64,000 nucleotides of DNA from a bacterium (GCA_030535355.1 JAUNIO010000004.1:13513-77512); one strand, 5' to 3'; positions 5,401-63,922 are shown, counted from the stretch's first letter. Notes: generated by a model from the sequence alone, not told the origin. Numbers and translations are program-made.

Positions 5401-5411
5401 ACCTTTCCCGT

Positions 5412-5705
5412 GTGGCCAAAGACATATGCGACACTTGGAAGCGTTATTGTACAGATAAAAGCGATTTTAAAACGTTTGCAGCTGAATTGAGGAAAAACGA
5501 AACTGATTTTGAAAAGGCGCGCCAAAAGGTTTTAAGGCTGCGCTGGCGTTATATTCACGAGTGGGCCCGGCGCAGCGGTGACGCTAACGCGGAGAGTTTC
5601 GCTGACGGTTATGCTGTCAGCTCCATGGCTTATGACGGCGTAAGCTTTACGGCGCTGGAACGGTTAGTCAATGATGAACAAAAGCATAATGCTCCCAATG
5701 ATTAG
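5412..5705 (+). CDS. C-terminal portion of paralog A (separate reading frame)
   Basis: TWKRYCTDKSDFKTF..EKARQKVLRLRWRY aligns with the C-termini of paralogs B and C (TWERYRQDKIDYKTF..., IWDSYCAGNITYASF...). It lies in a different frame from 4153-5400. Confidence 0.5.
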   Translation: MAKDICDTWKRYCTDKSDFKTFAAELRKNETDFEKARQKVLRLRWRYIHEWARRSGDANAESFADGYAVSSMAYDGVSFTALERLVNDEQKHNAPND

Positions 5706-5908
5706 GATCAGAGGCGGACTATCAAAGACGACTATGAGTTTGGGTCAACAGTTCCAAGGTCATCAAGCCTTAACTAAATGACATTGCCCATAATTAAAAG
5801 CGAATAATGTTTTGCGGGTTTTGCAAGGCGAAAAAGAGTCGGGGCACTAGCCAATGAATACAGCATCCTACTAAGTATTTAGCTAACAAACGTAACTGCG
5901 GGGGAAAC

Positions 5909-7441: not shown

Positions 7442-7480
7442 TAATTTAATGTATAGTTAGTTTATAGGATAAGATAGCGT

Positions 7481-9139: not shown

Positions 9140-9489
9140 AGTATAGGGCTTTGCTTTGGGCGAGAATCGTTGGCCCGGGAAAATCAATTATCGGGAATCA
9201 GCAGGACTCACCAGCAGGGCTGAAAGCGTATCCGCTGAGCGGTTTATTATGGCTTGAGCGATTATTGGCGGCAGCAGGTGTCTGACGCAGATGAATCAGG
9301 TAGATAGCCGACAGCTCTCTTGCATAAAGAAAAAATAAAGGGGAAATAATTGTATCTTCGCTGAATATATCTCCCCGTAAGCTAATGCCGTTACTGTGTG
9401 CGAACACAGCGCGGAGACAATGGTATATGTGCAGCATTTGCCATATCCTTGAGATTGGCCTAAACGATATTGCACCCTAAATAAACGGC

Positions 9490-11355: not shown

Positions 11356-11505
11356 AGCGGCCGCTTTACCAGAAGCGTGCGGATAAGGCAAATACTAGTC
11401 AGCCTGTTAAATGTTAGTTAAGCAGGAATAAATTAAAAAATCTGGAATTTCTATATACTAATTTGATATTTAACTATATCGCCATGATATACGGAGGATA
11501 CAGTA

Positions 11506-11745
11506 ATGCCCCATGTGATCGCTGAGCCTTGTGTAGGTGTAAAAGATAAAGCTTGCGCGAGTGTTTGCCCTGTACAGGCTATCAACGGCAGCGACGATAC
11601 CCCTCAGTTCTATATTAATCCCGACGAGTGCCTAGACTGCGGCGCTTGCATGTCAGCTTGCCCGGTGGAAGCGATCTATCCCGATACTGACCTCCCCGAG
11701 CAGTGGCAGAAATACATCGAGATTAATGCTGAATTCTACAAATAA
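11506..11745 (+). CDS. Ferredoxin (two Cys clusters, 4Fe-4S/3Fe-4S type)
   Basis: 79 aa with CVGVKDKACASVCP and CLDCGACMSACP motifs. RBS GGAGGA upstream. Confidence 0.7.
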   Translation: MPHVIAEPCVGVKDKACASVCPVQAINGSDDTPQFYINPDECLDCGACMSACPVEAIYPDTDLPEQWQKYIEINAEFYK

Positions 11746-11780
11746 TTTTATTTAGGCTTTAGCCTTCTGAAAATTATTCT

Positions 11781-11810
11781 GGCATCCCAATATAAAGGAT
11801 GCCTTTTTTG
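11781..11810 (+). terminator. Rho-independent terminator after the ferredoxin gene
   Basis: GGCATCC-9 nt-GGATGCC stem followed by a TTTTTT tract. Confidence 0.55.
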
Positions 11811-12003
11811 TTTGTTGGATAATCTTTTCAGCCAGTCTGTATGGCTTAAATTATCAATGACAAGCTCCATAAAATTAAAGGCCCCGCTAGCCGCAGAAGA
11901 AGCAGAGCAGGGCAAAATATATAGCTGGGCAGGACTGTTGTAAATCCTAACCGCGCTCTGCCGCCCGGCAAGACAAGCGGCAGAGACGGAAATTCCAGCA
12001 GGA

Positions 12004-13461
12004 TTAGCTGATGACGTGATTTCTCTCGATGACCAGATCGCCGTCAACCCAGCGGGCTACACCCATGTAAGGCATACCGTTCTTATCGAAGAGGTCTTTA
12101 GGCTCGATCTTCTGGTTGGGTTCGGTGTAGAGGATGCGCCCAGCGTCGATGAGGCGCTTCATGTTGGTCTTTAAGTCCTGAGCTGGTTTGCTGTTGGTGG
12201 AAGACGTAAAGATAGAATTGGCATCTACGGGAGTCTCAACTTTAGCGCCGGAGAACATACCGAAACCGTCGCCGTCCAAGGTCACAGTCATCATGCGGCT
12301 TTCCCGGGGACCGATATCCATATCTTCAGTGCCGATTTCACCTTCGGGCAGGATCAGACGGTTAGTCATGGAGTTGCGAATCAATTCACTGTTTTTGCCG
12401 CCCATGTGCTCAGCATCGGCTTTTAACATGCAGTTGGCCATCTGTTTATACGTGAAATCACCGCGGGGGGCTTCGTGCATCAAGTGACCGTAGAGCTCGA
12501 TCATCTCAGCTCCGCCTGCTTTGATGGCGTCTTTAGGCTCCATGCCATTGCTGACGTTGCGGCTGACGATGCCTGCGTAAATATCATAAACCGCTCCGGT
12601 CCAAACGCGCGACCAGTTGTGCATTTCCGTACCCAATTTATCAGAACCGGGGTTCTCGGGCAGGGTGCTGGGGTCTTGCCATTTCCAGGTGTTATTGGCG
12701 TTGCGGATGAAGTCGCCGCCGGTCTTGTTTTTACCCACAGCGCGGTTGATGGCCGTCCCCAGTTCTTCGGCGGTGCGGGCGATGCAGTTCTCTTTTTTCA
12801 TGTCGCCGCCGGTTTCGCGGGCTGCTATCTCACAGGTCTTATCGTCCTGCGTGGCCATGAATAACCCCATCATGTCGGCGAAGGATTCGTGGAAGCCCAG
12901 AGGATCGGGACTCCAGGAATTGAGATAGCCGGGGCGGATGCCGTCGAGCATGGCATGACCGACTTCGTGGGAGACAGCTTCACCGGACTGGCCGGAATAG
13001 ACCATTTCGCCTAACTGTTTATCGAAGCTGTGGAAGAAGTTTACCGAGCAGTCGGAGCGGGAATAATAGGCGTTGAGCATTTCGCCGCGGTCGGGGCGCA
13101 CAGTAATGGTGTCGCCGGAGGAACGCCAAGGCACTTTTTCGCCAAAGGCGGATTCGAACATTTCCAGCGTTTTGGCCACGGTAGCAAAGGTATGAGCGCT
13201 GGTGTAATTCTTGGAATCTTTCTGATCAAAGACGAAATTGCCATCTTCGTTGGGTTTTAGATCGGCATCTAATTTAACCCGGCTGGTTTGGGGACCGTGT
13301 TTGCCCATGGTGACGTCGCCCACATGAGTGGTGACGGGGCTCATGACCACGTTGTCTTGAGGATTGTAAGAAAATTCAATTTCTTTGGCGGCAGGCGCGG
13401 CTGCTGACGAAACAGAGTTTACATTGTAGTTGACATTGGAAACGCCTATAGAATTGATCAT
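12004..13461 (-). CDS. Thermolysin-like (gluzincin) zinc metalloprotease-domain protein
   Basis: HEVGHAML (HEXXH) followed 23 residues later by GFHESFADMMG. This parallels thermolysin HELTH...GAINEAISDIFG (third-ligand Glu). No obvious N-terminal signal peptide. Confidence 0.5.
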   Translation of the reverse strand: MINSIGVSNVNYNVNSVSSAAAPAAKEIEFSYNPQDNVVMSPVTTHVGDVTMGKHGPQTSRVKLDADLKPNEDGNFVFDQKDSKNYTSAHTFATVAKTLEMFESAFGEKVPWRSSGDTITVRPDRGEMLNAYYSRSDCSVNFFHSFDKQLGEMVYSGQSGEAVSHEVGHAMLDGIRPGYLNSWSPDPLGFHESFADMMGLFMATQDDKTCEIAARETGGDMKKENCIARTAEELGTAINRAVGKNKTGGDFIRNANNTWKWQDPSTLPENPGSDKLGTEMHNWSRVWTGAVYDIYAGIVSRNVSNGMEPKDAIKAGGAEMIELYGHLMHEAPRGDFTYKQMANCMLKADAEHMGGKNSELIRNSMTNRLILPEGEIGTEDMDIGPRESRMMTVTLDGDGFGMFSGAKVETPVDANSIFTSSTNSKPAQDLKTNMKRLIDAGRILYTEPNQKIEPKDLFDKNGMPYMGVARWVDGDLVIERNHVIS

Positions 13462-13621
13462 CCAAGTTCCTCCGATTATTTGTTAAGCTTAACGTATTAT
13501 CCATTTTGAATTTTATTACATGATTACTAATCATTTCTTGAACTAAATGTTAAAAGATATGCTGAAGCGGCAATGTCGCTAACGAGCTGTCAGCATTACC
13601 AGGCCTTAGCTGCTTACCGGA

Positions 13622-14650
13622 TTAATTCTGGGTGGGCTCAAAGCTCTCCCAGGAAAAATCGGCATAACTCGCTTTGCGGATTAGCCTTTGAGGATCTTTG
13701 GGATAGCTGGGGCCAGGATATTCGACGATGAAAGCGCCGCGTTTGGCATCGTAATAATTAGCTGACGCCATATTGCCCCAGTGGCTCCATCCGGTCAGCC
13801 CCAGCTTGTCGTAATCCAGCTGCCCGCGCTCGATCTCGCTGCCATTTCTGCGAAATATGTAAACGCGCTGGGTTCCAGAACCGCCATAGGTGCAGCTGCA
13901 GACGAGTTCTTTGCTGCCGTCACCATCTAGATCGATGGCGTGATCGTCTATGACAAAATTGAAGCTTTCGCCGATGATCTTCTCCTGGCCATTCACTATG
14001 GCGTAATATCTGCGGATATAGTGGTCGCTAATTTTTGGTGGTTCTCCGCTGCCGGGATTTATTGCCTTAGCGCCGCCATTGGGCTCGGAATAATCAGCTC
14101 CTGGCTGGGGCGGCATCATCCCGCATTCCTCATACCAGCCATCATAGCCCATGATGCCGGCGAACGGCCTGGCGTGCTGGGCACGCGCATTTTTGATGCA
14201 GCTGCGCAGCCAGGCAGCGCGTTCCGGGGAAAAGGATTTCAGCGCTTTATTAAGCTCATCTTTACAGAGGGGATGATCGATGTAAATGTGCCAGGTCCAA
14301 TAGAGTTTTTCGTCTGCCGATCTGGCATAGGCTCCTTCGGCTCCCAGACGGTACAGCAGGAGCTTGGGCAGGGGATAGCTGTATTCGCATATTTGCTTTA
14401 AAGAGGCTTCATTGTACGTTATGCCGCTGGCGGCCAATTCTTGTGCCGTAGGGCGGATGGAGGCGGGTGCCAGCAAAGGGGAAGCATCTGCCGCGAGCAC
14501 GGCTTCGGCAGCGGGAGGTGAGGAGGGATGAGCCTCCAGCCGGGCAGCGGGGGCGGTCAGAACCATGCCGGCTACTCCAGCTGCCGCGAGGCTGCGTTTG
14601 GCCAGGGCGGTGCATTTCCAATTCAGAATATGATACAGAGAAACACTCAT
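13622..14650 (-). CDS. Secreted hypothetical protein (signal peptide, DxDGDG FG-GAP/VCBS-like motif)
   Basis: 342 aa. N-terminal hydrophobic signal with Ala-rich cleavage region. Contains DLDGDGSKELV. Confidence 0.45.
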   Translation of the reverse strand: MSVSLYHILNWKCTALAKRSLAAAGVAGMVLTAPAARLEAHPSSPPAAEAVLAADASPLLAPASIRPTAQELAASGITYNEASLKQICEYSYPLPKLLLYRLGAEGAYARSADEKLYWTWHIYIDHPLCKDELNKALKSFSPERAAWLRSCIKNARAQHARPFAGIMGYDGWYEECGMMPPQPGADYSEPNGGAKAINPGSGEPPKISDHYIRRYYAIVNGQEKIIGESFNFVIDDHAIDLDGDGSKELVCSCTYGGSGTQRVYIFRRNGSEIERGQLDYDKLGLTGWSHWGNMASANYYDAKRGAFIVEYPGPSYPKDPQRLIRKASYADFSWESFEPTQN

Positions 14651-14685
14651 TGTTCAGACCTCCCGCTTGCAACATTTCTTCCTTC

Positions 14686-14925
14686 ACCAATGTCATTTAG
14701 TTAAGGCTCAATGTCGTTAACTAAATGACATTGGAAATGTTAACTTATATACAATTATCGCCACGTTCAGGCCTGCGTATAAGCTAGAGCAAAACACAAG
14801 CTAAACCTCGATTCCCCAACAGTCTTGGGCACCCCCTCTGTCGCATTCGCGACTTCTCCCCCTCCCATCCTTTAGGGGGAGTCAGATAGTTCGCAAGTTA
14901 GCTGATCGCTAACTAAATGATATTA
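14686..14925. repeat. MITE-like repetitive element, copy 1 (terminal inverted repeats TGTCATTTAGTTAA / TTAACTAAATGA)
   Basis: A near-identical roughly 230-bp sequence occurs in reverse-complement orientation at 63096-63320. The left end is a perfect hairpin (caatgtcatttagttaa..ttaactaaatgacattg) and there is an internal CCCCCT...AGGGGG stem. Confidence 0.7.
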
Positions 14926-15031
14926 CTTTATTCACCAGGACGAACATTTTTGGCATTTTCGGTATGTTGGCATTTTCGGTATGGCCTCCGCTTCTCATTC
15001 TGCTGGAGTGTTCCTCGTTAAGCTTTTTCCC

Positions 15032-15532
15032 TTAAGCTTCTGCCCATTTATGCCGGTGCAGCTCTCCCTGAAGTTCCAAGCCGGCAAATGCTCTCTGCCG
15101 GGCGGCTTCGTAGGCCACGATGGCTACGGCATTGGACAGATTGAGTGATCTTATATCCGGCAGCATGGGAATTCTCACTGCCGTATCCGCATATTGCAAA
15201 AGGATTTCTTCTGGGATTCCGGCGCTTTCCTTGCCGAACATTAAATAGCAGTCCTCCTCATAGCGCGGGGTGTCGTAGGTCTGGCGCGCTTTGGTGGAAA
15301 CCATATAAATTTTGGCATCGGGATGGCGGCGGCGGAAATCGTCAAAGTCGTCATAAACAGCAACGCTGAGCTTAGGCCAATAATCCAAACCGGCCCGCTT
15401 AATGGATTTAGCGTCCAAAAAGAACCCCAAGGGCCTGATTAAATGCAGTTTGGCGCCTAAAGCTACGCAGGTGCGCCCGATGTTGCCGGTATTGGCCGGC
15501 ATCTCCGGTTCATGCAGAATAATGTTGATCAT
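15032..15532 (-). CDS. trmL: tRNA (cytidine/uridine-2'-O)-methyltransferase TrmL (SpoU/TrmH family)
   Basis: 166 aa. ILHEPEMPANTGNIGRTC and GKESAGIPEE motifs are characteristic of YibK/TrmL. Confidence 0.8.
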   Translation of the reverse strand: MINIILHEPEMPANTGNIGRTCVALGAKLHLIRPLGFFLDAKSIKRAGLDYWPKLSVAVYDDFDDFRRRHPDAKIYMVSTKARQTYDTPRYEEDCYLMFGKESAGIPEEILLQYADTAVRIPMLPDIRSLNLSNAVAIVAYEAARQRAFAGLELQGELHRHKWAEA

Positions 15533-51149: not shown

Positions 51150-52808
51150 ATGAAAACTCAGTGTAAATCTTCAACTGACAAACAACATGTTAAATGGCAT
51201 TTTAGGAATTTGCTGCTTTTAATAGGAGCAATATCCGTGCTGATCACCGGTGCTGTCTGCACTGCCTGCAGCGACGGGGGTGGATCGGCGGCAGCATACG
51301 GCGGCCAAGGCTCGCTGGTGCTGAGATTATCCCGCGAAACCGCTGCTGACAGCGCTTCTGCGGCGAGCAAAGGGTATATCAATAAGCTGGTGCTGCGCTT
51401 CTATGAAGGGCTGGAGGATCGCACGGCTGGCGCTTTGCTCTTTACCCGCAATATCGAAGTCGCTTCCGGTCAGTCCAGTGTGCAGATCGATAACGTTCCC
51501 GCCCCGCAGGATTATCTGTTTGTCGCCGATATTTACCTGAGCGATTCCACATCAGTTTACCGTTCTACGCGCTTTTGGGTCAGCACTAAAGTCGCTCAGA
51601 CTGTAAACGCTGAAGCGCTGGATTTAGACGTGGACAGCCTAGAACTTTCGCAGGATACAGCTGCTCTCACCGTCGGTGATACGGTTCAGCTCGCGCTGAC
51701 GGCGACTTATTTAGACGGCTTTAGCGAAGACGTTACCGAGTACGCTGTCTGGAGCGTTTCCGATGACGCTGTGGCCAGCATTGATGCGGGGTTAATCACC
51801 GCCTTGGGTTCTGGCTCCTGCACCGTGATAGCCGCTTACGGCGGTCAAGAAAAAGCCGCGATAATCTCCGTCTCCGGCAGCCCGGAACCCACTCCGTCTC
51901 CTTCGCCTTCGGTATCACCGTCTCCGTCTCCGTCGCCTTCACCGTCGCCTGAGCCTAAGGTGCTGAGTCATCTGGCTATAGATGTGACTTCTAAGACTAT
52001 CGGCGTAGATGAAACTGTTAACCTGAAAGTCACAGCCACCTATGAGGACGGTTCGGAAGAGGACGCCACCGAAAAAGTAACCTGGGAATCCGATGCTGAA
52101 GATATCGCTTCCGTGGACAGCAGAGGCAAGGTCACTGGGGTGAGCGCAGGCATTGCTCATATTACGGTATCTCTGGATAATGTGGTCTCCGATCCCGCGG
52201 TGATTACGGTGACTGATGGCCGAGCCGATCCCAATTTCTTTATCACCCCCGATGACACGGTCATACTGTGCGGGGGCCATCAAGCCCGTTTAGGGGCGAT
52301 ATTCCTCGACGCAAAAGGCACCAGAAACGATGTTACGCAGGAATGTGAATGGACCAGCAGCGACCCGGATTTGCTCGAGATTTCTGAAGAAATCAAAGGA
52401 GAACTGTTCAATACCAATACTCCGGGCACGGTGACCGTAACCGCTGTTTACACCGACGAGGCCGGGACGACGCATACGGCCACGGCTAAGGTGAAAATTA
52501 CCGACGCTGCTTTTAGTGGCACAATTGAACGGCCAGTAGTCTGTGACCCTGAAACCGCTACGATCAAAGTCGGGGAAGGCGTGCAGATCAATGTAATCGG
52601 CACCTTCGACGACGGCACCGAAGGCAACATCAACGCTCTGTTTACCGGAATGTGGCAGCTGAATGAAGGCGATTCGGCCTACGGGACAGTCGATGATTAC
52701 GGCTATGTCACCGGCACGGCATCGTCCGGAGAAAATTACATGACCGTCTGGTTCCACGATGAAGAGAGCGGCTACTCCGATGAGTCGCACATCACCGTGA
52801 CCGAGTAG
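51150..52808 (+). CDS. Big_2 (bacterial Ig-like) domain surface protein with Ser/Pro linker
   Basis: N-terminal anchor. Several Big_2-like modules (TVGDTVQL..TATY.DG..EDVT....W.S.D..VASID..G.ITA...G) and an (SP)n linker. Confidence 0.6.
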   Translation: MKTQCKSSTDKQHVKWHFRNLLLLIGAISVLITGAVCTACSDGGGSAAAYGGQGSLVLRLSRETAADSASAASKGYINKLVLRFYEGLEDRTAGALLFTRNIEVASGQSSVQIDNVPAPQDYLFVADIYLSDSTSVYRSTRFWVSTKVAQTVNAEALDLDVDSLELSQDTAALTVGDTVQLALTATYLDGFSEDVTEYAVWSVSDDAVASIDAGLITALGSGSCTVIAAYGGQEKAAIISVSGSPEPTPSPSPSVSPSPSPSPSPSPEPKVLSHLAIDVTSKTIGVDETVNLKVTATYEDGSEEDATEKVTWESDAEDIASVDSRGKVTGVSAGIAHITVSLDNVVSDPAVITVTDGRADPNFFITPDDTVILCGGHQARLGAIFLDAKGTRNDVTQECEWTSSDPDLLEISEEIKGELFNTNTPGTVTVTAVYTDEAGTTHTATAKVKITDAAFSGTIERPVVCDPETATIKVGEGVQINVIGTFDDGTEGNINALFTGMWQLNEGDSAYGTVDDYGYVTGTASSGENYMTVWFHDEESGYSDESHITVTE

Positions 52809-52928
52809 CTGAATTACTGGCGCTCCGTGCGAAAAATGCCGAGAATAGGTTTGCTCTTTATTCTCAGCTCTATTCTTTAGCACTTATAATTGAGCCGCCA
52901 TTAGACACTGTTGAACGGCGTTTAACAC

Positions 52929-52970
52929 AAAATCCGCTTCTTAGAACAGCATCTAGGAGGCGGATTTTAT
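52929..52970 (+). terminator. Hairpin terminator downstream of the Big_2 gene
   Basis: AAAATCCGC...GCGGATTTT (9-bp stem) followed by a T-run. Confidence 0.45.
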
Positions 52971-53010
52971 GTTAGGAGATTAGGCTAGGCAATATGTATG
53001 GGATTAGCCT

Positions 53011-53041
53011 GTTATCTATTGAATCTTATTTAATAGATAAC
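53011..53041. promoter_or_regulatory. Perfect 10-bp inverted repeat (GTTATCTATT-N11-AATAGATAAC), candidate operator of the downstream toxin-antitoxin operon
   Basis: Palindrome about 60 bp upstream of the Panacea antitoxin start, in an AT-rich promoter region. Confidence 0.4.
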
Positions 53042-53103
53042 AGTTATATAATCTATTATAATAATGCCGAGTATTACAAGTTTCGGAGAAGGAGACCATA
53101 AAA

Positions 53104-53535
53104 ATGGTAACAGTATTTGATGTTGCAAAGTATATACTAGAACAACTTGGCACGTTATCGACTATGAAACTTCAAAAACTCTGTTACTACGCTCAGGCTT
53201 GGTCGTTAGTCTGGAATGAAGAGCCTCTTTTTCCTAATGAGTTTGAAGCCTGGGTGAATGGCCCTGTATGCAGAGAACTATTTGTCGCCACCAAAGGCGA
53301 GGTATGCGTTGGGGCCAGCTATATAGAAGGAGATTCTTCGGTTTTATCTGAAGATCAAAAAAAGACAGTTAATTCTGTTTTAAAGTATTACGGCGATAAA
53401 GAAGCTAATTGGCTGAGTCAATTAACACACATGGAAGAGCCTTGGATAAAAGCACGAGAAGGTTTCCCTTCTGGTGTTAAATGTCATAATATAGTTACTA
53501 AAGAAAGTATGGCTAAGTATTATGGCAACCTCTAA
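53104..53535 (+). CDS. Panacea-domain (DUF4065, SocA/GepA-like) antitoxin
   Basis: VFDVAKYILEQ...TMKLQKLCYYAQAWSLVWNEEPLFPNEFEAWVNGPV is a close match to the Panacea/DUF4065 core. RBS GGAGAAGGAG upstream. AT-rich. Confidence 0.7.
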   Translation: MVTVFDVAKYILEQLGTLSTMKLQKLCYYAQAWSLVWNEEPLFPNEFEAWVNGPVCRELFVATKGEVCVGASYIEGDSSVLSEDQKKTVNSVLKYYGDKEANWLSQLTHMEEPWIKAREGFPSGVKCHNIVTKESMAKYYGNL

Positions 53536-53974
53536 GAAATCACGAAAAGACGATGGCCCTAATAAAAAGCACGATCCAGACAGCTATTTGTCTAAACCAC
53601 CAAGCTGGTGCTTTTTAAGCTGCGATACCGATACTAAGTGCAGATGGTCATTTTCTCAACATAGATTAAAAGAAGAATTTTGGACGCGCATATTTCTAAA
53701 GCTACAAAAGTTTGAGCAGATGACCTGGAGTGAGATTCAAATAAAGAGTAAAAAGCAAAATCATAGTAATATTGTTGAAACAATGAATAAATGCGCCAAA
53801 GATAGGCTTGATGAATTAGAAATTGAATATAATGCTTTATTTTCTCTGCGTTTAAATAGTACTGTCAGATTATATGGCTATCGTGAAGGAGCGGTATTCA
53901 ATATTTTATGGTATGATAATGATCATGGCGATAATGATACCTGCGTTGTCCGAAGCAGACTAAAACATACTTAG
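53522..53974 (+). CDS. Putative cognate toxin (PanT candidate) of the Panacea antitoxin, unknown fold
   Basis: 150-aa ORF overlapping the antitoxin gene by 14 nt. Lys-rich N-terminus. The C-terminal LRLNSTVRLYGYREGAVFNILWYDNDH resembles RelE/ParE-like beta-strand patterns only weakly. Confidence 0.35.
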   Translation: MATSKKSRKDDGPNKKHDPDSYLSKPPSWCFLSCDTDTKCRWSFSQHRLKEEFWTRIFLKLQKFEQMTWSEIQIKSKKQNHSNIVETMNKCAKDRLDELEIEYNALFSLRLNSTVRLYGYREGAVFNILWYDNDHGDNDTCVVRSRLKHT

Positions 53975-54044
53975 CTTGTTCTCATATATTGTAAAGCCTG
54001 CCGCCAGAACTATTGTTTGGCAAAGATGAGTTAAGGACTATAAT

Positions 54045-54926
54045 ATGGAATTGAGCGACCTAAAGCGAGCGTTGCTGTCACTTTTACAGACAGACGAAGA
54101 ACTGCGCAGTCTAATTAGCAGTATTTCCCGCAGCAGCGAACTTAGGGACAACGAGAAAAAGAATTCCCTGTCCGATTCCCGGGAAAATGCCGGGGCAGAC
54201 GGCCGGACGGATTATAGGCGCAGCGGGTACAATGAGGAGCTGCCAGAACCTAGAGATCGGCGCAGCATCGCTTTAGAAGCGGAAGTTAGGAGCCTGCGCG
54301 AGCAGCTGCGGCAGAAAGAGAATTCTTTGGTGAGTCTGAAAGAGGAATACCTGCGCCAAAAGCAGGAACTGGCGGATTCTGTTAGCGCCGCGCAACGCCT
54401 GCAGGTCAGCCTTGACGCGCTGCGCGGCGAAGCTGACTCTTTGCGGACCACCAACCAGCAGCAGTCTCAGGAACTGGAACGGCTGCGGCAGGAGCTGGCG
54501 CAGAGATTTCCCGAGGGATGGAAGCTGTTCCAAGCTTATCACAGCGTTTCTCAGCCGACCCGCGAGCTACTGCGCGGGGTGTTCGTGCGCGGGAACGATT
54601 TTACGTCGTTCATCTGCGGCGCGGCGCAGAGCGCTTCCCTGGAAAAGATTTGGAAGACCGTCAAGGGCTGCATCTCTCAGGGCAACACCCGGGACGCGGA
54701 TATTTTATGGGATATTTTCGCGTATGCTGTGAAGCTGGTCAATGCTTCCAAACCCGAGAAAGTTTACGAAATTCTGCAGGCGGAGCCGGGCATGCCCTTC
54801 GATTTGGAAGTGCACGCTTTGGCCCCGGGCAGCCGGGCCCAGGGCAATATCCGGGAGATCTACTTGCAGGGGTATAAAAACGTCTATGTGGGGCGCGTGG
54901 AACAAAAGAGCATCGTCAGCTTATGA
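54045..54926 (+). CDS. Divergent GrpE-like protein (coiled-coil N-terminal region plus GrpE-type C-terminal domain)
   Basis: Central heptad-rich segment. The C-terminus EPGMPFDLEVHALAPG....NIREIYLQGYKNVYVGRVEQKSIVSL parallels the GrpE signature G.PFDP..H.A......V..GY...R..R.A.V.V. Confidence 0.5.
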   Translation: MELSDLKRALLSLLQTDEELRSLISSISRSSELRDNEKKNSLSDSRENAGADGRTDYRRSGYNEELPEPRDRRSIALEAEVRSLREQLRQKENSLVSLKEEYLRQKQELADSVSAAQRLQVSLDALRGEADSLRTTNQQQSQELERLRQELAQRFPEGWKLFQAYHSVSQPTRELLRGVFVRGNDFTSFICGAAQSASLEKIWKTVKGCISQGNTRDADILWDIFAYAVKLVNASKPEKVYEILQAEPGMPFDLEVHALAPGSRAQGNIREIYLQGYKNVYVGRVEQKSIVSL

Positions 54927-55088
54927 TCATTGCGCCAAAGCGCTGCGCCGCAGTGACATATTTTGTCATTGTCAAAGATTATAATACGATATAACATAAA
55001 GCGGCCATTCTGGGCAGGTTTGGAACGGGGTGGCCGTATTTTAAATTATGCTTTTAGAGTAACAGAGCTTTTACAGGAGTGCAAACCG

Positions 55089-58000
55089 ATGTCCTTACCT
55101 ACCGATCATACCGCCCTCAAAACCGCTGTTAAGATTCCGGCTTTCCAGGTACCCGCTTTAGTCGCAAGCTGTATCGAAGCCGATATCGCCGCCCTGGCTA
55201 AAGATATTGCCGCTTTGTTTGAGGAGCTGGTTCCTATAGCCGAGCAGCGCTTCGTGATGATGCAGAATAAGGAGGTCTGGTATGATCGGGAAAACGCGGC
55301 TCTGTTTCCCAAGTTTGAAGCGTTAAAGCTGCCTACAAGCAATACGTCGTGCGACCCTGTCAAGACTTGGCCTGGCCTATCCTTTGAGGGTTTTGAATTT
55401 GTAATGATGACCAGAAATGAATTCAATACAAGTTTTCTAAATGGTTCTGGCAATCCGTACTTAAATGATGGAAATTATCAGTATTTTCCAATAGCAAGCA
55501 GCATTGTTCTAATAGCTGAAAAAAGTGGCAGCAAGACTGTATTTTGCTATGCTAACGGTAGCACTGGAGCCTGGTGTGACAGTGATCGTGTAACTATCGT
55601 TCCCATCTGCCGTCTCAACGGCAAAAACAGCTCAGCCGTGCCGCTGCTCCAGAGAATCGCGAGCTGGCTGGAGAACGACTTAATACCCCAGGGATTAAGC
55701 GCCCCGCAAATTGAAAAATACCAAGAACTATCCACAAGCTTCCAAAAGTATCTGCAGATTGAAAAATATCTACAGATTGAGAACAATGATAGCTCCATAA
55801 TATTTAAGGAAGCGGAATTTAAATCCGACGTTTTCTCCGGCTCCTTCACCCAAACCATCTTCGGCTACGACTTCGATTTGGCTGCCAAAACCGAGCGCGT
55901 CCTGCACCATGACGAAAAGCTCGCGTCCTCTGCCACCATCTCTGACTTTTTCCTCGGCTGCGATAAGCTGCGCGCCGATCTCGAACCCTACAAGGAAAAC
56001 CGCCTCACGGATCCCAATCTGGGGCACTGGGAACTGGCTGAGCCTGCTGACCAAGGGGATATCGAAATCGATCTTCCCCAGGATAAACCTTGGTACGCCC
56101 GCCCTCCCCAAATGGACGTGGCGGAAACCGGCACCTGCGCTATCGACTTCGGCACCAAAAGCACCGTGGTGGTCTGCCGCGATCGGGATGCCCGGTTGCT
56201 GCGCGTAGGCCGGGGCGACCTGTCCAAAGCTCCGACGGCGGCGGATTACGAAAATCCCACGGTCATAGAGCTGCGCGACTTAGAGGGCTTTATGCAGGCC
56301 TACCAAGCCCGAGAAGGGCGTCCGTACACAGAGTGGGAACAGCTGACCGTTTCCCATCAGGCCGCCGAGGCCATATTCCAGAACGACGACGACAGTTCCG
56401 TTTACTATTCGGTCTTCCGGGAACTCAAACAGTGGGCCAATGACAAAGACCGCCGGCTCATGCTGCGGGACCGTCAGGGTAAAGTTATCGAATTAAAGCC
56501 CTACGCAGAACTGACGGAAGGCGACTTCGATCCCATCGAGGTTTACGCTTATTATCTGGGGCTGTACATCAACAATATGCACAGACGCATTTATCTCGAC
56601 TATCTGCTGTCTTTCCCGGTCACCTATGAGAAAAAGGTACGGGAGCGCATCCGCCAGAGCTTCGAGCGCGGCCTCAGGAAGTCCCTGCCTCCGGCGATTC
56701 TGCGCGATGAAGAGATGATGGACATGTTTAGGGTGGCGGCAGGTGCCAGCGAACCGGCGGCTTATGCCATCAGCGCTTTGGAAGAGTACGGCCTGCAGCC
56801 CAAGAAAAACGGCTCTATTATCGGCAAGCCGGTGGCTTATGCGGTCTTCGACTTCGGCGGGGGCACCACGGATTTCGATTTCGGTATTGAGGAGATTCCC
56901 GCCGATGGACGGCGCAAATTCGTCATTCATCGCTTCGGGGCCGGCGGCGACGCTTATCTGGGCGGAGAAAATATTCTCGACCTCATGGCCTACGAGGTTT
57001 ATCAGGACAACCTGGAAAAAATGCGGGCGGAGGACATTCCCTTCGTTCTGCCGCCCGACTGCAAAAAGTTTGCCGGCGCGGAAACGCTCGTCAAGGAACA
57101 GGCGGAGGCTTCGCAGCAGGCCTACATGAACAGCAAGCGGCTGGCTCGGGAAATGCGCTGTATTTGGGAGCGGGAGAAGGATTACCGCGCCAAATTTGAA
57201 CAGGGCGACGTTTCGCTGATCCTGTTTTCCAATAAGCTGAAGAACGGTTCGGACAAGAGAGAAGTCAGCCTGAAGATCGACGTCGCTAAGCTGGAAAAAT
57301 GTATTAAAGAACGCATCCGCCGCGGCGTGGAGAATTTCTTTACCGCCATGATGCACGCGTTTGCGGACCGGGATGTTTTCCCCATTCATATTTTCCTGGC
57401 GGGAAACTCCTGCAAATCGGTGTTCGTGCGCCCTCTGTTCGACGAGTATATCCGGCATTACGAAAAAGAAATAGCCGCGGGAATGTCTGAAAGCAGCGCG
57501 CTGGAAAATGATTCCAGCGATATCTTTGTCCTGCATCCGCCTTTAGGGGCGGAGTGGCCCCCAGAACCCGTGCCCGAAAGAGATTATGAAGAAGAGGAGT
57601 GGCAGGAAAGCTATTGTGAACAAGATGTGCAGTGGGGCGAAATCAATTTTGAAGTCGCTGTATCTCCTGGAGCAGGGCACGGGCCGGAATATAAAGCAGA
57701 GGACAAACATCTGGCCAAGAATTTCGATCAGCTGCGCACCGGCAAAACCGGCGTAGCCTTCGGTCTGCTGCGCACCCGCATTAGCGCTCAGGATGTCAAG
57801 CTCATCGACGATGATGCCGTGAAAGGTGAGATTCCCTTCCCTTATTATCTGGGCGATATCGACCGGGAGGAGCATTTCCGCGTGCGCATCGGCCTAGAAA
57901 TCCCCTATGGACGCTGGATTCAGTTTACTTATGCCGACGAACCGGAATTCGAACTGTACTACACCAAAGAAGCCAGCTGCTTAAAAGGCGGTTACGGGCA

Positions 58001-58172
58001 GTATGACGTCGGGCGCGTGCGCTGCCGCCTGACCAGCAGCGATATACGTGAGGATGCCCATGTGTTTGTCCGCAAAGCCACGCCGTCCAGCATCGAGTAC
58101 GCCGTCGGTCTGGAAAGCGATTTTAATGCCGGAGAGTTTAAGGGCAAGGTTTATAAAAAAGAGCTGAAATAA
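55089..58172 (+). CDS. Giant Hsp70-superfamily (DnaK-like actin-fold) ATPase with roughly 350-aa N-terminal extension
   Basis: Phosphate-1 AIDFGTKSTVVV, phosphate-2 YAVFDFGGGTTDFD, and adenosine-motif IFLAGNSCKS in canonical Hsp70 NBD order. About 1028 aa from ATG 55089 (RBS CAGGAG); the ORF is open from 54963. Confidence 0.6.
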   Translation: MSLPTDHTALKTAVKIPAFQVPALVASCIEADIAALAKDIAALFEELVPIAEQRFVMMQNKEVWYDRENAALFPKFEALKLPTSNTSCDPVKTWPGLSFEGFEFVMMTRNEFNTSFLNGSGNPYLNDGNYQYFPIASSIVLIAEKSGSKTVFCYANGSTGAWCDSDRVTIVPICRLNGKNSSAVPLLQRIASWLENDLIPQGLSAPQIEKYQELSTSFQKYLQIEKYLQIENNDSSIIFKEAEFKSDVFSGSFTQTIFGYDFDLAAKTERVLHHDEKLASSATISDFFLGCDKLRADLEPYKENRLTDPNLGHWELAEPADQGDIEIDLPQDKPWYARPPQMDVAETGTCAIDFGTKSTVVVCRDRDARLLRVGRGDLSKAPTAADYENPTVIELRDLEGFMQAYQAREGRPYTEWEQLTVSHQAAEAIFQNDDDSSVYYSVFRELKQWANDKDRRLMLRDRQGKVIELKPYAELTEGDFDPIEVYAYYLGLYINNMHRRIYLDYLLSFPVTYEKKVRERIRQSFERGLRKSLPPAILRDEEMMDMFRVAAGASEPAAYAISALEEYGLQPKKNGSIIGKPVAYAVFDFGGGTTDFDFGIEEIPADGRRKFVIHRFGAGGDAYLGGENILDLMAYEVYQDNLEKMRAEDIPFVLPPDCKKFAGAETLVKEQAEASQQAYMNSKRLAREMRCIWEREKDYRAKFEQGDVSLILFSNKLKNGSDKREVSLKIDVAKLEKCIKERIRRGVENFFTAMMHAFADRDVFPIHIFLAGNSCKSVFVRPLFDEYIRHYEKEIAAGMSESSALENDSSDIFVLHPPLGAEWPPEPVPERDYEEEEWQESYCEQDVQWGEINFEVAVSPGAGHGPEYKAEDKHLAKNFDQLRTGKTGVAFGLLRTRISAQDVKLIDDDAVKGEIPFPYYLGDIDREEHFRVRIGLEIPYGRWIQFTYADEPEFELYYTKEASCLKGGYGQYDVGRVRCRLTSSDIREDAHVFVRKATPSSIEYAVGLESDFNAGEFKGKVYKKELK

Positions 58173-58402
58173 AGCGACTGTACAAACCGCTGGGCCGCAG
58201 CCTCCGTCTTCCGCAGTGCGATGCATACACGGCTGACGGCGCTTAAATAAATTACATTGGCCGAAAAACAAGGCCGAATTGACTGCTGCCTCAAAGGGAT
58301 TACAGCACTCGTTGCGAAGTGAAAGGTTTCTCATTTCAGTTTTACTAGTTACGGCGCCGCACTGCGGCCGCAGCCGATCCCCAGGCGCCGGGAGGATTTA
58401 CT

Positions 58403-60907
58403 ATGCAATACGAACCCAACAAGATCGAGCGCAAATGGAGAGCCATCTGGGAAGAGCGCAAGCTCCATCACGCCGTCAAGGACGAAACAAGGCCTAAATA
58501 TTACTGTCTGGACATGTTCCCTTATCCTTCGGGTGAGGGGTTGCACGTCGGCCACTGGCGCGGCTATGTGCTTTCCGACGTTTGGTCGCGCTACATGACG
58601 CTGTTAGGCTATAACGTATTGCACCCCATGGGCTGGGACGCCTTCGGCCTGCCCGCGGAAAACGCGGCCATTAAAAAGGGCGTGCATCCCGAAACCCAGA
58701 CCAAAGCCGCCGTTTCCAACATGAAACGCCAGCTGACCGATATGGGGTCTATGTACGACTGGGAGCGCGAAGTCAATTCCTCCACCCCCGAGTATTACCG
58801 CTGGACCCAGTGGGTCTTCCTCAAAGCTTACGAGCTGGGTTTGGCTTACAAGAAGGGCGCTCCCATCAACTGGTGCCCCGGCTGCCGTTGCGGCCTGGCC
58901 GATGAAGAGGTTAAGGAAGGCCGCTGCGACCGCTGCGGCTCCGAAGTTACCAAAAAGAACCTCAACCAGTGGTTCTTCGGCATCAGCAAATACGCCCAGC
59001 GCCTGATCGATGACATTAAACCTTTGGACTGGCCGGAAAAAGTCAAAAAGATGCAGATCGACTGGATCGGCCGCAGTGAAGGCGCGGAAGTCTGCTTCCA
59101 GCTTGAAGGCCTAGAGGATAAGCTGTGGATTTACACCACCCGTCCCGACACTCTCTTCGGCGCTACCTATATGGTCATGGCCCCCGAGCATCCCTTGGTG
59201 GACAAGATCACGACAGATGAACAGCGCGAAGCCGTGGAAGCCTATCGCACCCGCACCAGCACCCGCAGCGAGGTGGAGCGCCAGGAACAGCGCGAGAAGA
59301 CCGGCGTCTTCACGGGCGGCTACGCCATCAACCCGGTCAACGGCAAGCGCACCCCGATTTGGATCTCCGACTACGTGCTCATGGGCTACGGCACCGGAGC
59401 TATCATGGCCGTGCCTTCCCACGACACCCGCGACTGGGATTTTGCTAAAGCCTTCGATATTCCCATTATCCAGGTGGTGCTGACCCCCGAGCAGGAAAAA
59501 GAATTGGCTGGCTGTAAGGGTGCCGAAGAACTCAATAAAGCTTATGCGGAAAAATATCCCCAGATGCCCCTGACCGAAGCTTACTGCGAAGTGGGCACGA
59601 TGATAAATTCCGGCGAATTCTCCGGCCTGAAATCCGATGTTGGCCGCAAGCGCATCGTGGAGTCCCTGGAAGCCAAAGGCCTGGGTCGCACCAAGATCAA
59701 CTACCGCCTGCGCGACTGGCTAGTTTCCCGCCAGCGCTACTGGGGTGCTCCCATTCCCATGGTTTATTGCGACGACTGCGGCATTGTGCCCGTTCCCGAA
59801 GAACAGCTGCCCGTGCTGCTGCCTCACGTGGATAAATATGAACCCTCTGGCACCGGGGAATCGCCGCTGGCGGCCATCGATGAGTTTGTCAACACCACCT
59901 GCCCTAAGTGCGGCAAACCGGCGCGCCGCGACACCGATACCATTTCCCAGTGGATCTGCTCTTCCTGGTATTTCCTGCGCTATTCGTCTTACGACTGCCA
60001 GGATCAGGCCTGGCGCAAGGAAGACGTCGATTATTGGAACCCCGTAGATATGTACGTGGGCGGCATCGAGCACGCCGTGCTGCATCTGCTCTATTCGCGC
60101 TTCTGCACTAAGATGTTCTACGATCTGGGCCTGGTGAAGTTCACCGAACCCTTCCAGCGCCTCTTCAACCAGGGCATGATCTGCAAAGTCGGCCATTCCG
60201 GCCGCCTGGAGAAGATGAGCAAATCCAAGGGCAACGTGGTCAATCCCGACGAGCTGGTAGAAAAATACGGCACCGACTCCCTGCGCGCCTACGAGCTGTT
60301 CATCGGCCCTCCGGAACTGGACGCCGAGTGGAACGACAGCGGCATCGACGGCGTCTATCGCTGGATTAAACGCGTCTGGAATTTCGCTCAGGAAACCGAA
60401 TTTGCCAAAGATAAAGAGAGCGACATTGAAGTGTTGCGCCTCTCGCACCGCTTTATCAAAAAGATCAACGATGACTTGCAGCGCCTGCACCTGAATACGG
60501 TAGTGGCCGCGCTGATGGAATGGATGAACGGTTTATATACTCTGCGCTCGCAGGGCAAAACCATCTCCGAAGAGACGCTGCGCCAGTATATCGTCATCGC
60601 TTCTCCCATTATTCCGCACACCGCCGAAGAGATGTGGCACAATTTGGGCGAAGAAAAATCCCTCTTTGAAGGTAAGCCGGCCTGGCCTACCCATAAAGAG
60701 GAATACACCGTGGAGAACACCTTTAAACTGGCCGTGCAGGTCAACGGCAAAGTGCGCGCCACTTTGGAGATTCCTATGGGCACGGAACAGGCCGCTATTG
60801 AAGAGCTGGCCCGAGCCAATGAGCGCGTAGCTGCCCAGCTGGAAGGCAAGACCGTGCGCCGGGTAATCTATGTGCCCAACAAGCTGCTCAACATCGTCGT
60901 AGGTTAA
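58403..60907 (+). CDS. leuS: Leucine--tRNA ligase
   Basis: HVGHWRGY (HIGH class) motif, KMSKS, and the CP1 editing domain. 834 aa. Confidence 0.95.
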   Translation: MQYEPNKIERKWRAIWEERKLHHAVKDETRPKYYCLDMFPYPSGEGLHVGHWRGYVLSDVWSRYMTLLGYNVLHPMGWDAFGLPAENAAIKKGVHPETQTKAAVSNMKRQLTDMGSMYDWEREVNSSTPEYYRWTQWVFLKAYELGLAYKKGAPINWCPGCRCGLADEEVKEGRCDRCGSEVTKKNLNQWFFGISKYAQRLIDDIKPLDWPEKVKKMQIDWIGRSEGAEVCFQLEGLEDKLWIYTTRPDTLFGATYMVMAPEHPLVDKITTDEQREAVEAYRTRTSTRSEVERQEQREKTGVFTGGYAINPVNGKRTPIWISDYVLMGYGTGAIMAVPSHDTRDWDFAKAFDIPIIQVVLTPEQEKELAGCKGAEELNKAYAEKYPQMPLTEAYCEVGTMINSGEFSGLKSDVGRKRIVESLEAKGLGRTKINYRLRDWLVSRQRYWGAPIPMVYCDDCGIVPVPEEQLPVLLPHVDKYEPSGTGESPLAAIDEFVNTTCPKCGKPARRDTDTISQWICSSWYFLRYSSYDCQDQAWRKEDVDYWNPVDMYVGGIEHAVLHLLYSRFCTKMFYDLGLVKFTEPFQRLFNQGMICKVGHSGRLEKMSKSKGNVVNPDELVEKYGTDSLRAYELFIGPPELDAEWNDSGIDGVYRWIKRVWNFAQETEFAKDKESDIEVLRLSHRFIKKINDDLQRLHLNTVVAALMEWMNGLYTLRSQGKTISEETLRQYIVIASPIIPHTAEEMWHNLGEEKSLFEGKPAWPTHKEEYTVENTFKLAVQVNGKVRATLEIPMGTEQAAIEELARANERVAAQLEGKTVRRVIYVPNKLLNIVVG

Positions 60908-62579: not shown

Positions 62580-63077
62580 ATGAATAAATTTTTCACTCTG
62601 GCCGTAGCGTCAGCGCTTCTGCTCTCTTTGAACGCCTGCACTGAGAATACGCAGGACCAGGAACCCACGACGCTTGAGCAGGCCTTGCCAGCTGCTGCTC
62701 CTGCCGAGCCCGCCAGTTCCTCGGGGGCCAGCGGTTCCGCGTCCGAATATGAAAAGGCTCACGCCCAAGGCCAGCTGACAGCCTGCAAGAGCAACTTAAA
62801 AAATATAGGCACAGCCTTGGAAATGTGGCAGTCCGATCATGATGGTAAATTGCCGGAAAAGCTCTCCGAAGTAACCACGGGTGGCCCATACGGGGGATAT
62901 TTAAAGGTTATTCCTTCTTGCCCGGCAGCTAGAGGAGACAGCTATTCCAGCTCCTATAAACGCTCTGCCGACGGCAAAAACTACGAAGTTTACTGCAGCG
63001 GGCATAACCATGCCTTACTGGGCATTCCTAAAAATAGGCCTGGCTTTACCTCTGAGATGGGGCTTATAGAGAAGTAA
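62580..63077 (+). CDS. Lipoprotein with pseudopilin/type IV pilin-like (GspG-like) domain
   Basis: Lipobox LSLNAC. Downstream AQGQLTACKSNLKNIGTALEMW...GGYLKVIPSCPAA matches the conserved post-helix region of pseudopilins (..A....C.SNLK.IG.A...Y). Confidence 0.5.
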   Translation: MNKFFTLAVASALLLSLNACTENTQDQEPTTLEQALPAAAPAEPASSSGASGSASEYEKAHAQGQLTACKSNLKNIGTALEMWQSDHDGKLPEKLSEVTTGGPYGGYLKVIPSCPAARGDSYSSSYKRSADGKNYEVYCSGHNHALLGIPKNRPGFTSEMGLIEK

Positions 63078-63095: not shown

Positions 63096-63320
63096 TAATA
63101 TCATTTAGTTAGCGATCAGCTAACTTGCGAAACTATCTAACTCCCCCTAAAGGATGGGAGGGGGAGAAGTCGCGAATGCGACAGAGGGGTGCCCACGACT
63201 GTTGGGGAATCGAGGTTTAGCTTGTGTTATGCTCTAGCTTATACGCAGGCATGAACGTGGCGATAATTGTATATGAGTCAACATTTCCAATGTCATCGAG
63301 TCTTAACTAAATGACATTGA
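63096..63320. repeat. MITE-like repetitive element, copy 2 (reverse-complement of 14686-14925)
   Basis: Near-identical (a few mismatches) to copy 1 in inverted orientation. Ends with the hairpin caatgtcat..ttaactaaatgacattg. Confidence 0.7.
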
Positions 63321-63922
63321 CTAATAGGGAAGGGGCGCATATGTCAGCAAAAAATCAAATTCCTCAGGAAAATGTCAAAGCCGGAACTACAGGAATTATA
63401 GTTGGTCTCTTGATGGGGTGGATTATGCCGCCCATTACCTGGATAGCAGCGTTTTTTCTGTATAAAAGCTTTCTCAAAGATGGCAATCTCAGCGACGCCA
63501 AAGGTATAAAAATAGGGGCGCTGATCACTGGAGGCCTGTGCTGTGTTGTCGGTTTGCTTGTCATTCCCTTGCTGGCCGCTATACTCGTGCCGAATTTTGT
63601 CAGAGCCAAAGCTCAAGGCCAGCTGACAGCCTGCAAAAGCAATCTGAAAAATATAGGCACAGCCTGTGAGATGTATTCCACCGATCATTACGGCCGTTAT
63701 CCCAAAAAGCTTTCGGAACTGTGCGAAGGGCCCAATGGTGGCTATCTCAAAACAATCCCTACCTGTCCGGCAGCCGGAACTGACAATTATGTTTATACCA
63801 TGCATGCTGATCCCGATATATTTACGATCTATTGCCGTGGCGAAAACCATACGGTTCTCGATATTCCTAAAGATAAACCGGCCTTTAGCTCTATCTATGG
63901 CCTGATAGAGCAGAATGATTAG
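63311..63922 (+). CDS. Membrane protein with pseudopilin/type IV pilin-like domain (paralog of 62580-63077)
   Basis: Two N-terminal hydrophobic segments (..LLAAILVPNFVRAKAQGQLTACKSNLKNIGTACEMY..GGYLKTIPTCPAAG). The C-terminal 110 aa are colinear with the lipoprotein paralog. No canonical G-FTLIE prepilin cleavage motif. Confidence 0.5.
   Translation: MTLTNREGAHMSAKNQIPQENVKAGTTGIIVGLLMGWIMPPITWIAAFFLYKSFLKDGNLSDAKGIKIGALITGGLCCVVGLLVIPLLAAILVPNFVRAKAQGQLTACKSNLKNIGTACEMYSTDHYGRYPKKLSELCEGPNGGYLKTIPTCPAAGTDNYVYTMHADPDIFTIYCRGENHTVLDIPKDKPAFSSIYGLIEQND

Follow-up and report, generated by a model that had tools for sequence, protein, structure and literature searches.

The DNA examined here is a window of 64,000 nucleotides (nt) from a bacterial metagenome-assembled genome (MAG; GCA_030535355.1, JAUNIO010000004.1:13513-77512), within which positions 53,011 to 58,172 hold four co-directional open reading frames (ORFs) on the + strand, termed A to D. 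A and B form a predicted Panacea-type toxin-antitoxin (TA) cassette, C encodes a GrpE-like protein and D an Hsp70-like ATPase. The explanation that best fits the evidence, and in which we have moderate confidence, is that an acquired TA cassette lies beside a separate C-D ATPase switch, and that this switch acts in trans with a HerA machine as part of a nucleoside triphosphate (NTP)-dependent conflict system. An earlier note on this region, made from the DNA alone, had placed the same four ORFs at the same positions and had treated the TA pair, C and D as one accessory module.

Gene D (55089-58172, + strand) was described in that note as a protein of about 1000 amino acids (aa) with an Hsp70-superfamily nucleotide-binding domain (NBD) behind an unexplained N-terminal domain. 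In direct searches D had no Pfam match to Hsp70 (PF00012), the NCBIfam HscA and DnaK models scored 11-17 bits against cut-offs above 600, and phmmer against PDB sequences returned DnaK at E 7e-4 over about 50 residues, confined to the DFGGGTxD...GDxxLGGE stretch. Profile-profile comparison of 55 D-family members with 37 true DnaK sequences using hhalign gave a match of 97.7% (E 1.8e-12), in which D residues 553 to 792 correspond to DnaK 167 to 354; the homology is to lobe II and takes in subdomain IIB. In structural comparison the six top matches of D were all Hsp70 or Hsp110 NBDs. Identity to Hsp70 NBDs is 13-16%. The family motifs IDFGTKST (phosphate-1), SEPAA, DFGGGTTD (phosphate-2), GDxxLGGE and LAGNS are invariant or at least 90% conserved, which argues for a working ATPase. 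The suspicion that the Hsp70 motifs might be spurious is thus answered by the profile-profile and structural matches, and the description of D stands. These data support D as a non-chaperone-type relative of Hsp70 with an intact actin-fold NBD.

The reading frame of D is open from a TTG at 54963 (1069 aa). Homologues span just 96% of this longer frame and an AGGAG lies 9 nt 5' of the ATG at 55089; we therefore take the product to be 1027 aa, starting at that ATG. Its NBD occupies residues 345 to 827 (approximately 56121-57569) and follows an extension of some 335 to 345 aa, made up of a variable N-terminal domain (residues 1 to 280) and a conserved pre-NBD segment (residues 281 to 344). Behind the NBD come a disordered insert (residues 828 to 876) and then the last NBD helix with a beta-rich C-terminal domain of about 125 aa (residues 877 to 1027). 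Approximately 60% of the top 150 D-family representatives align only from residue 265-295 or so onwards. No Hsp70 substrate-binding domain was found: hhalign of the D family, and of the C-terminal domain alone, gave nothing in DnaK 390 to 640 (0.7%). A motif-level likeness of the C-terminal domain (GGKDVKI...FPYYLGD against GDVKDVLLLDVTPLSLGIE) to the Hsp70 interdomain linker and the first strands of the substrate-binding domain was not supported by hhalign (0.7%). For the N-terminal domain, a suspected link to C-type-lectin-like or DUF6273 targets of diversity-generating retroelements (DGRs) was rejected, as comparison with a DUF6273 protein encoded on L100, a second contig of this MAG, gave 0.6%. 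An otherwise unsupported antisense ORF of 347 aa (56493-57536, - strand) lies wholly within D and probably does no more than reflect the GC-rich coding sequence.

Gene C (54045-54926, + strand; 293 aa; Q4F00_01810) was said in the note to be a coiled-coil protein with a GrpE signature at its C-terminus. A direct Pfam scan gave no match of C to GrpE (PF01025) at E<0.1, and weak matches were found in 5 of 17 relatives (best E 0.017). NCBIfam and PADLOC scans of C returned coiled-coil noise only; a full-length profile searched against PDB sequences was swamped by the coiled coils of myosin and tropomyosin, and the profile of the C-terminal domain did not find GrpE there. The assignment is carried instead by hhalign and by the predicted fold. 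Aligned with 16 true GrpE sequences (15 ORFs from genuine dnaK loci plus E. coli GrpE as the seed), the conserved C-terminal 143 aa of C matched at 88.8% (E 2.5e-6). The match takes in 61 columns, equivalent to residues 129 to 193 of E. coli GrpE, and the controls, reversed GrpE and DnaK, gave 0.1%. Un-iterated hidden Markov models (HMMs) of the C family and of GrpE each returned members of the other as their first outside matches among 5,621 ORFs, although these matches were weak. The nine best Foldseek matches of the C model were all GrpE. The predicted fold is that of GrpE, with a long N-terminal coiled-coil helix (residues 70 to 154), a helical bundle (residues 156 to 235) and a small beta domain (residues 241 to 292), and the conserved C-terminal domain (approximately 54492-54923, + strand) carries the FDxxxH...GY...beta-domain motif of GrpE (FDPxxH...GY...V.V). 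Profile-profile comparison and predicted fold together support C as a GrpE homologue. Among the three Pfam families that the note had named for these genes, DUF4065 is matched by A in a direct scan, while GrpE and HSP70 are not matched in this way by C and D.

These same comparisons bear on the possibility that D is an actin-like filament ATPase of the MreB/ParM type and C its coiled-coil scaffold, the likeness to GrpE being structural only. C is indeed largely coiled coil, and multimeric Hsp70/tubulin assemblies have been proposed for conflict systems (Kaur et al.; PMC7159879). Nevertheless, the top structural matches of D are without exception Hsp70 and Hsp110 NBDs, its profile homology is specifically to DnaK lobe II with subdomain IIB, and C has the full GrpE architecture together with a motif that fits nucleotide exchange. 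We consider a filament improbable.

Proteins of the D family were found in 549 clusters (50% identity) at E<=1e-30, and in 891 at E<=1e-3, among 1.84 billion representatives. Their distribution is patchy and covers at least four phyla, with members in Selenomonas (including oral Selenomonas), Veillonellaceae, Clostridia, Paenibacillus, Victivallaceae, Bacteroidales, Helicobacter (including H. pylori), Campylobacteraceae, Pseudomonas, Oceanisphaera, Acidithiobacillus and others. RefSeq labels the members 'hypothetical protein', and neither Pfam nor PADLOC has a model for them. Combinations of Hsp70-like and GrpE-like proteins with HerA or dynamin were sought in the searchable literature, and no description of the D family was found. 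The note's remark that the architecture is not a described system holds in so far as the family is unnamed, and needs tempering in so far as Hsp70 plus GrpE modules have been described computationally in predicted conflict systems (PMC7159879). In H. pylori the D-family member (L031 774-2975; L034 4746-7165) is an intact protein of 733 aa in strain KH0141 and is split into 277 and 529 aa in PZ5056, a difference that points to phase variation or decay.

The note had proposed that C and D form a dedicated exchange-factor/ATPase pair, and had asked whether the two genes keep company elsewhere. A GrpE-like gene adjoins the Hsp70-like gene in loci L001 to L007 and L009, in every untruncated metagenome locus examined and in at least 16 of 35 genome loci, the 16 being spread over Bacillota, Campylobacterota, Pseudomonadota and Bacteroidota. 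The partnership is therefore frequent, not invariable, and the idea of a dedicated pair is strengthened by it.

In the closest relatives the C-D pair heads an operon that continues with a HerA-like ATPase and three further genes, S1, S2 and S3. This downstream set was found in L001, L004, L007, L009, L011, L012, L014, L038 and other loci; the pair is single in L001, L004, L014 and L038, and two tandem Hsp70-like genes are present in L007, L009, L011 and L012. The HerA-like ATPase of the relatives (approximately 1080-1100 aa) matches Pfam DUF87, the PADLOC mad8/HerA models and HerA structures in the PDB, and its N-terminal half of about 550 aa has no assigned family. S1 (approximately 285 aa) has a glycine-zipper-like hydrophobic N-terminus, and S2 and S3 are small proteins. 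Among the matches listed, 20 D homologues lie on contigs identical in size to those of HerA-like homologues. In the doubled operons the gene between the paralogous Hsp70s (L007 4345-5415; L009 3683-4345) encodes 220-356 aa, is not GrpE-like and belongs to no family detected.

Window C and D belong to this operon family, whose HMMs recognise them at E 1e-81 and 1e-254, respectively. With L007 g4, D shares 62% identity along its entire length, and C shares 47% with L007 g1; D is the orthologue of the HerA-adjacent paralogue of the doubled operons, and C that of their first GrpE-like gene. A tblastn search with L007 g5-g8 found neither a HerA-like gene nor S1-S3 in the 64-kb window, where D is followed by leuS (58403-60907). 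A separate 93-kb contig of the same MAG (L100) does carry a complete operon, encoding a GrpE-like protein (Q4F00_02970, 426 aa), an Hsp70-like protein (Q4F00_02965, 1021 aa, 43% identical to D), a HerA-like ATPase (1131 aa) and S1 to S3 (Q4F00_02955, Q4F00_02950 and Q4F00_02945). The window locus also occurs in two Logan assemblies, and the second-locus operon is present in these same two sequencing runs. Given this complete operon elsewhere in the MAG, the window pair is a second, unlinked paralogue. The two Hsp70-like paralogues share 58% identity over the NBD and 42% over the C-terminal domain, but only 24% over the N-terminal domain.

An unlinked pair might be a decaying, functionless leftover of an operon rearranged after the loss or translocation of its HerA gene. 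The HerA-like gene and S1-S3 are missing from the window, whereas among the closest relatives every one whose gene context is known has its D orthologue followed at once by the HerA-like gene. Set against this is the state of the genes themselves. Both ORFs are intact, every nucleotide-binding motif is retained, and a relative at approximately 80% nt identity, with a synonymous divergence (dS) of about 0.6, has preserved both the order of C and D and the spacer between them. The ratio of nonsynonymous to synonymous divergence (dN/dS) of D in such a comparison is 0.26 overall, with 0.14 in the NBD, 0.18 in the C-terminal domain and 0.32 in the N-terminal domain. The window C-D pair is intact and under purifying selection, and a functionless remnant is very improbable. 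Homologues exist elsewhere for all four genes which, together with the dN/dS of D, indicates that A to D are real genes and not chance ORFs.

The cassette of A (53104-53535, + strand; 143 aa) and B (53522-53974, + strand; 150 aa; Q4F00_01805) has a different history. A GC content of 0.35-0.41 is confined to approximately 52750-54000, over A and B (A itself about 0.37), whereas C, D and the flanks on both sides have 0.50-0.59, so that the cassette lies 15-20 points under C-D. The cassette was found in none of approximately 45 other loci with C-D homologues, and the related contig L091 matches this DNA only from 54008 onwards, immediately after B. Because of its composition, its absence from homologous loci and this boundary, we conclude that the cassette is an independent insert, acquired recently and, in our reading, horizontally; among C-D loci it is seen only in this lineage. 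A functional union, in which the Hsp70-like pair regulates the toxin or is regulated by it, would have in its favour that only short spacers separate these neighbouring genes, all read from one strand, and that B has a faint likeness to the C-terminal part of NsnC, a defence protein. The three observations just given speak against such a union, as does the occurrence of an A-B pair on its own on a Rhizobium plasmid, and with the idea largely refuted by comparative data we find it hardly credible. The single accessory module of the earlier note must accordingly be divided. The note had also taken the neighbouring TA genes and the low-GC patch as a hint to the function of C-D; as the low GC covers A-B alone and the cassette is independent, its adjacency is uninformative on that function.

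Within the cassette, A matches SocA_Panacea (PF13274, DUF4065) at E 8.2e-18, with 65.8 bits against a gathering cut-off of 25.7, and overlaps B by exactly 14 nt; a Panacea antitoxin with an overlapping partner gene had been predicted, and both features bear it out. Against the NCBIfam SocA equivalog NF047745, A scored 45.5 bits, over residues 17 to 66 only and far under the cut-off of 190, and is therefore no orthologue of SocA. B, the candidate cognate toxin, had no match in a Pfam scan, and its closest likenesses were the C-terminus of PADLOC NsnC (7.6e-8, weak) and NCBIfam MAG6450_fam (5.5e-7, under the cut-off). A distant homologue of B (29% identity) is encoded on the conjugative plasmid pTH2b of Rhizobium sp. 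TH2 (L102 1935-2893), directly after a gene annotated as "SocA domain-containing antitoxin" and overlapping it by 4 nt. The two-gene unit is thus conserved across phyla, and B and this homologue define a conserved Panacea-associated family of candidate toxins with no Pfam model. The cassette is like PanA-PanT and SocAB in having a Panacea domain encoded upstream of a small overlapping partner, and differs from them in that B falls outside any characterised toxin family and A is not SocA. Antitoxin first is the usual order of Panacea operons (Kurata et al. 2022, PNAS; PMC8832971). By analogy with type II systems, A would neutralise B through direct binding. A near-perfect palindrome with 16-nt arms and a 3-nt loop, found at 53009-53043 by a repeat search, is overlapped by a promoter-like site upstream of A (53034-53062, promoter scan); it is likely a candidate operator, through which the cassette would probably regulate itself.

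For the C-D switch we propose the following scheme. The fast-evolving N-terminal domain of D would likely serve as a specificity or sensor module that recognises a target, its conserved core would pass the signal on, and its conserved beta-rich C-terminal domain would likely be a docking or output module. By analogy with GrpE acting on DnaK, a coiled-coil dimer of C would most likely insert its C-terminal beta domain into the nucleotide cleft of D, free ADP and reset the cycle, giving D a private ATPase cycle. The window pair would then be a second, differently tuned Hsp70-like/GrpE-like module acting in trans with a HerA-centred machine, the whole being most likely an NTP-dependent conflict system directed against mobile elements. 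Action in trans is suggested because tandem duplication of the pair is common beside the HerA-like gene and because this MAG holds both a linked and an unlinked pair. A conflict role is suggested by how rare and how patchily spread the family is, by the turnover of paralogues, by the variable N-terminal domain and by the exchange of the partner NTPase, which in a Bacteroidales MAG (L025 7032-12909) and in Acidithiobacillus ferrivorans (L032 5571-12726) is a dynamin-family GTPase of about 850 aa in place of the HerA-like protein. The neighbourhoods point the same way. At the second locus (L100 4756-18587; Q4F00_02940-02970) the operon, at 4756-15395, is immediately followed by a DGR (DUF6273 target gene, bAvd and reverse transcriptase) and a Schlafen/AlbA_2-Fic-like gene, L007 has a NERD/UvrD-like gene and insertion sequence (IS) genes as neighbours, and polymorphic-toxin genes occur beside other pairs. 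A more elaborate version, which we put forward tentatively and think possible at best, is that one or more interchangeable Hsp70-like sensors, each with a variable N-terminal recognition domain and a private GrpE-like factor that resets it, gate a hexameric HerA-type motor and a glycine-zipper membrane effector, and that pairs encoded away from the core operon plug into it in trans and so widen the range of invaders recognised.

Several points weigh against this proposal. That the window pair works in trans with the second locus is no more than our inference, and a conflict or defence role for C-D is likewise only presumed from gene content and context. PADLOC-DB v2 has no specific model for C, for D or for g1-g4 and g6-g8 of the relatives, generic HerA models aside; a single marginal match of D, to PDC-M29A, had E 0.002. 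No recognisable nuclease or other classical effector was found in the operon. The complete operons of L001, L004 and L009 lie amid housekeeping genes, outside defence islands, and L010, L021, L023, L024 and L027 hold lone D-family members with neither a GrpE-like nor a HerA-like neighbour. Among IMG/VR viral contigs there was one true relative of D only, so the family is not phage-typical. Finally, a 14-sequence profile of the N-terminal domain of D had no match in PDB sequences or Pfam and the C-terminal domain had none in DnaK, so that neither domain was assigned a fold.

In textbooks Hsp70 and GrpE appear as housekeeping partners, and grpE and dnaK are often adjacent. C and D share with that pair the phosphate-1, phosphate-2 and adenosine motifs of the NBD, the GrpE architecture and gene adjacency. 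They differ from it in that D is 1027 aa long, with about 340 aa at the N-terminus and a 125-aa C-terminal beta domain, and has no detectable substrate-binding domain or lid; no J-protein partner was seen, both proteins fall under Pfam and NCBIfam thresholds, and the family is rare, patchy, often duplicated and HerA-linked. C-D could still be a specialised protein-remodelling chaperone pair with no immune role, the HerA operon being a secretion or assembly machine. The pair is kept here under purifying selection with no linked HerA gene, S1 is membrane-associated, surface-type proteins and pseudopilins are encoded in the flanking parts of the window, and in a Helicobacter MAG the pair precedes a FliK-like gene. 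In Selenomonadaceae (L018 9201-23011; L019 1351-15432) it is followed by genes for an AHH-nuclease-like toxin, Imm11 and a VgrG-like spike, an arrangement that in L018 would suit such a chaperone; both loci also have a second, Pfam-HSP70-positive Hsp70, with another GrpE-like gene after it in L019. HerA/FtsK-family ATPases, moreover, drive secretion and translocation too (PMC11090510). What tells against a remodelling chaperone is the missing substrate-binding domain, the lack of a J-domain partner in any locus seen, effector-like neighbours that vary between loci, a HerA-like protein with no predicted transmembrane segment, and a rarity, patchiness and N-terminal variability unlike those of a housekeeping assembly factor. 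We judge the chaperone explanation rather unlikely, although well ahead of a filament or a remnant.

Among known systems, the nearest description of the conflict switch is that of Kaur, Burroughs, Iyer and Aravind (2020, eLife; PMC7159879), who computationally described Hsp70 plus GrpE modules in GAP1-N2 DO-GTPase conflict systems, noting that some of these Hsp70s have no peptide-binding domain, that DnaJ fusions sometimes occur and that DGRs are associated; the theme of C-D is thus not wholly undescribed. Common to both are a dedicated, non-housekeeping Hsp70/GrpE pair within an NTPase-centred multi-gene system and a DGR. In the family studied here, by contrast, the partner NTPase is HerA-like, or a dynamin-family GTPase in the two distant loci, and no NTPase gene of any kind is linked to the window pair. 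The systems of Kaur et al. are defined by DO-GTPase, GAP1 and FNIII components; none of these was found among the window neighbours, no search having been aimed at GAP1/FNIII profiles, and the relatives' full operons have no GTPase. Bell et al. (2024, eLife; PMC11090510) described CnuD/Hsp70-like NBD and substrate-binding units in type II/III CoCoNuT McrBC systems. These too are divergent Hsp70-like ATPases in coiled-coil-rich predicted defence operons, and extended versions sometimes include HerA/FtsK-family ATPases and glycine-zipper proteins. McrB and McrC homologues and HEPN or vWA genes are absent here, however, and the CnuD motifs are described as degenerate, whereas those of D are conserved, with no GrpE-like partner described for CnuD (PMC11090510). 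SIR2-HerA, DUF4297-HerA and mad8 of MADS resemble the HerA-like ATPase of the relatives and of the second locus, which matches HerA profiles and structures; they differ in that this ATPase, with a length of about 1100 aa, is accompanied by neither SIR2 nor a nuclease and is not in the window.

The spacer between C and D (54927-55088, 162 nt) is approximately 80% conserved among relatives and contains a conserved TATAAT at about 54980. A GC-rich hairpin with a U-tract at 54997-55043 (+ strand; RNA fold -22.1 kcal/mol, z -4.1) is kept in L090 and L091 with its stem sequence changed in the alignment, and may be a terminator or attenuator that sets the expression of D. A promoter-like site at 54017-54044, abutting the start codon of C, was set aside as probably coincidental, and Rfam had no match in 52600-58500. 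Beyond the four genes, the window encodes a permease, CTP_transf_like, DUF4127 and beta-propeller proteins, leuS, a Sel1 protein and pseudopilin-like proteins. Two paralogous small proteins (62580-63077 and 63311-63922), downstream of the Sel1-repeat gene, have in common a AQGQLTACKSNLKNIGTA...W/Y motif typical of prepilin and pseudopilin N-termini.

C and D represent a private, deeply diverged Hsp70-NBD/GrpE pair that RefSeq, Pfam and PADLOC naming has missed, from a family that is modularly coupled to large NTPases; in most loci the NTPase is HerA-like, in others it is a dynamin-like GTPase. If the conflict reading is true, the family would add a nucleotide-exchange-controlled Hsp70 switch to the ways in which bacteria threshold immune effectors, and the core operon with its unlinked extra pair would offer a clonable case for function in trans. 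Should that reading prove wrong, the family would still be a tractable case of the Hsp70 fold re-used with no substrate-binding domain.

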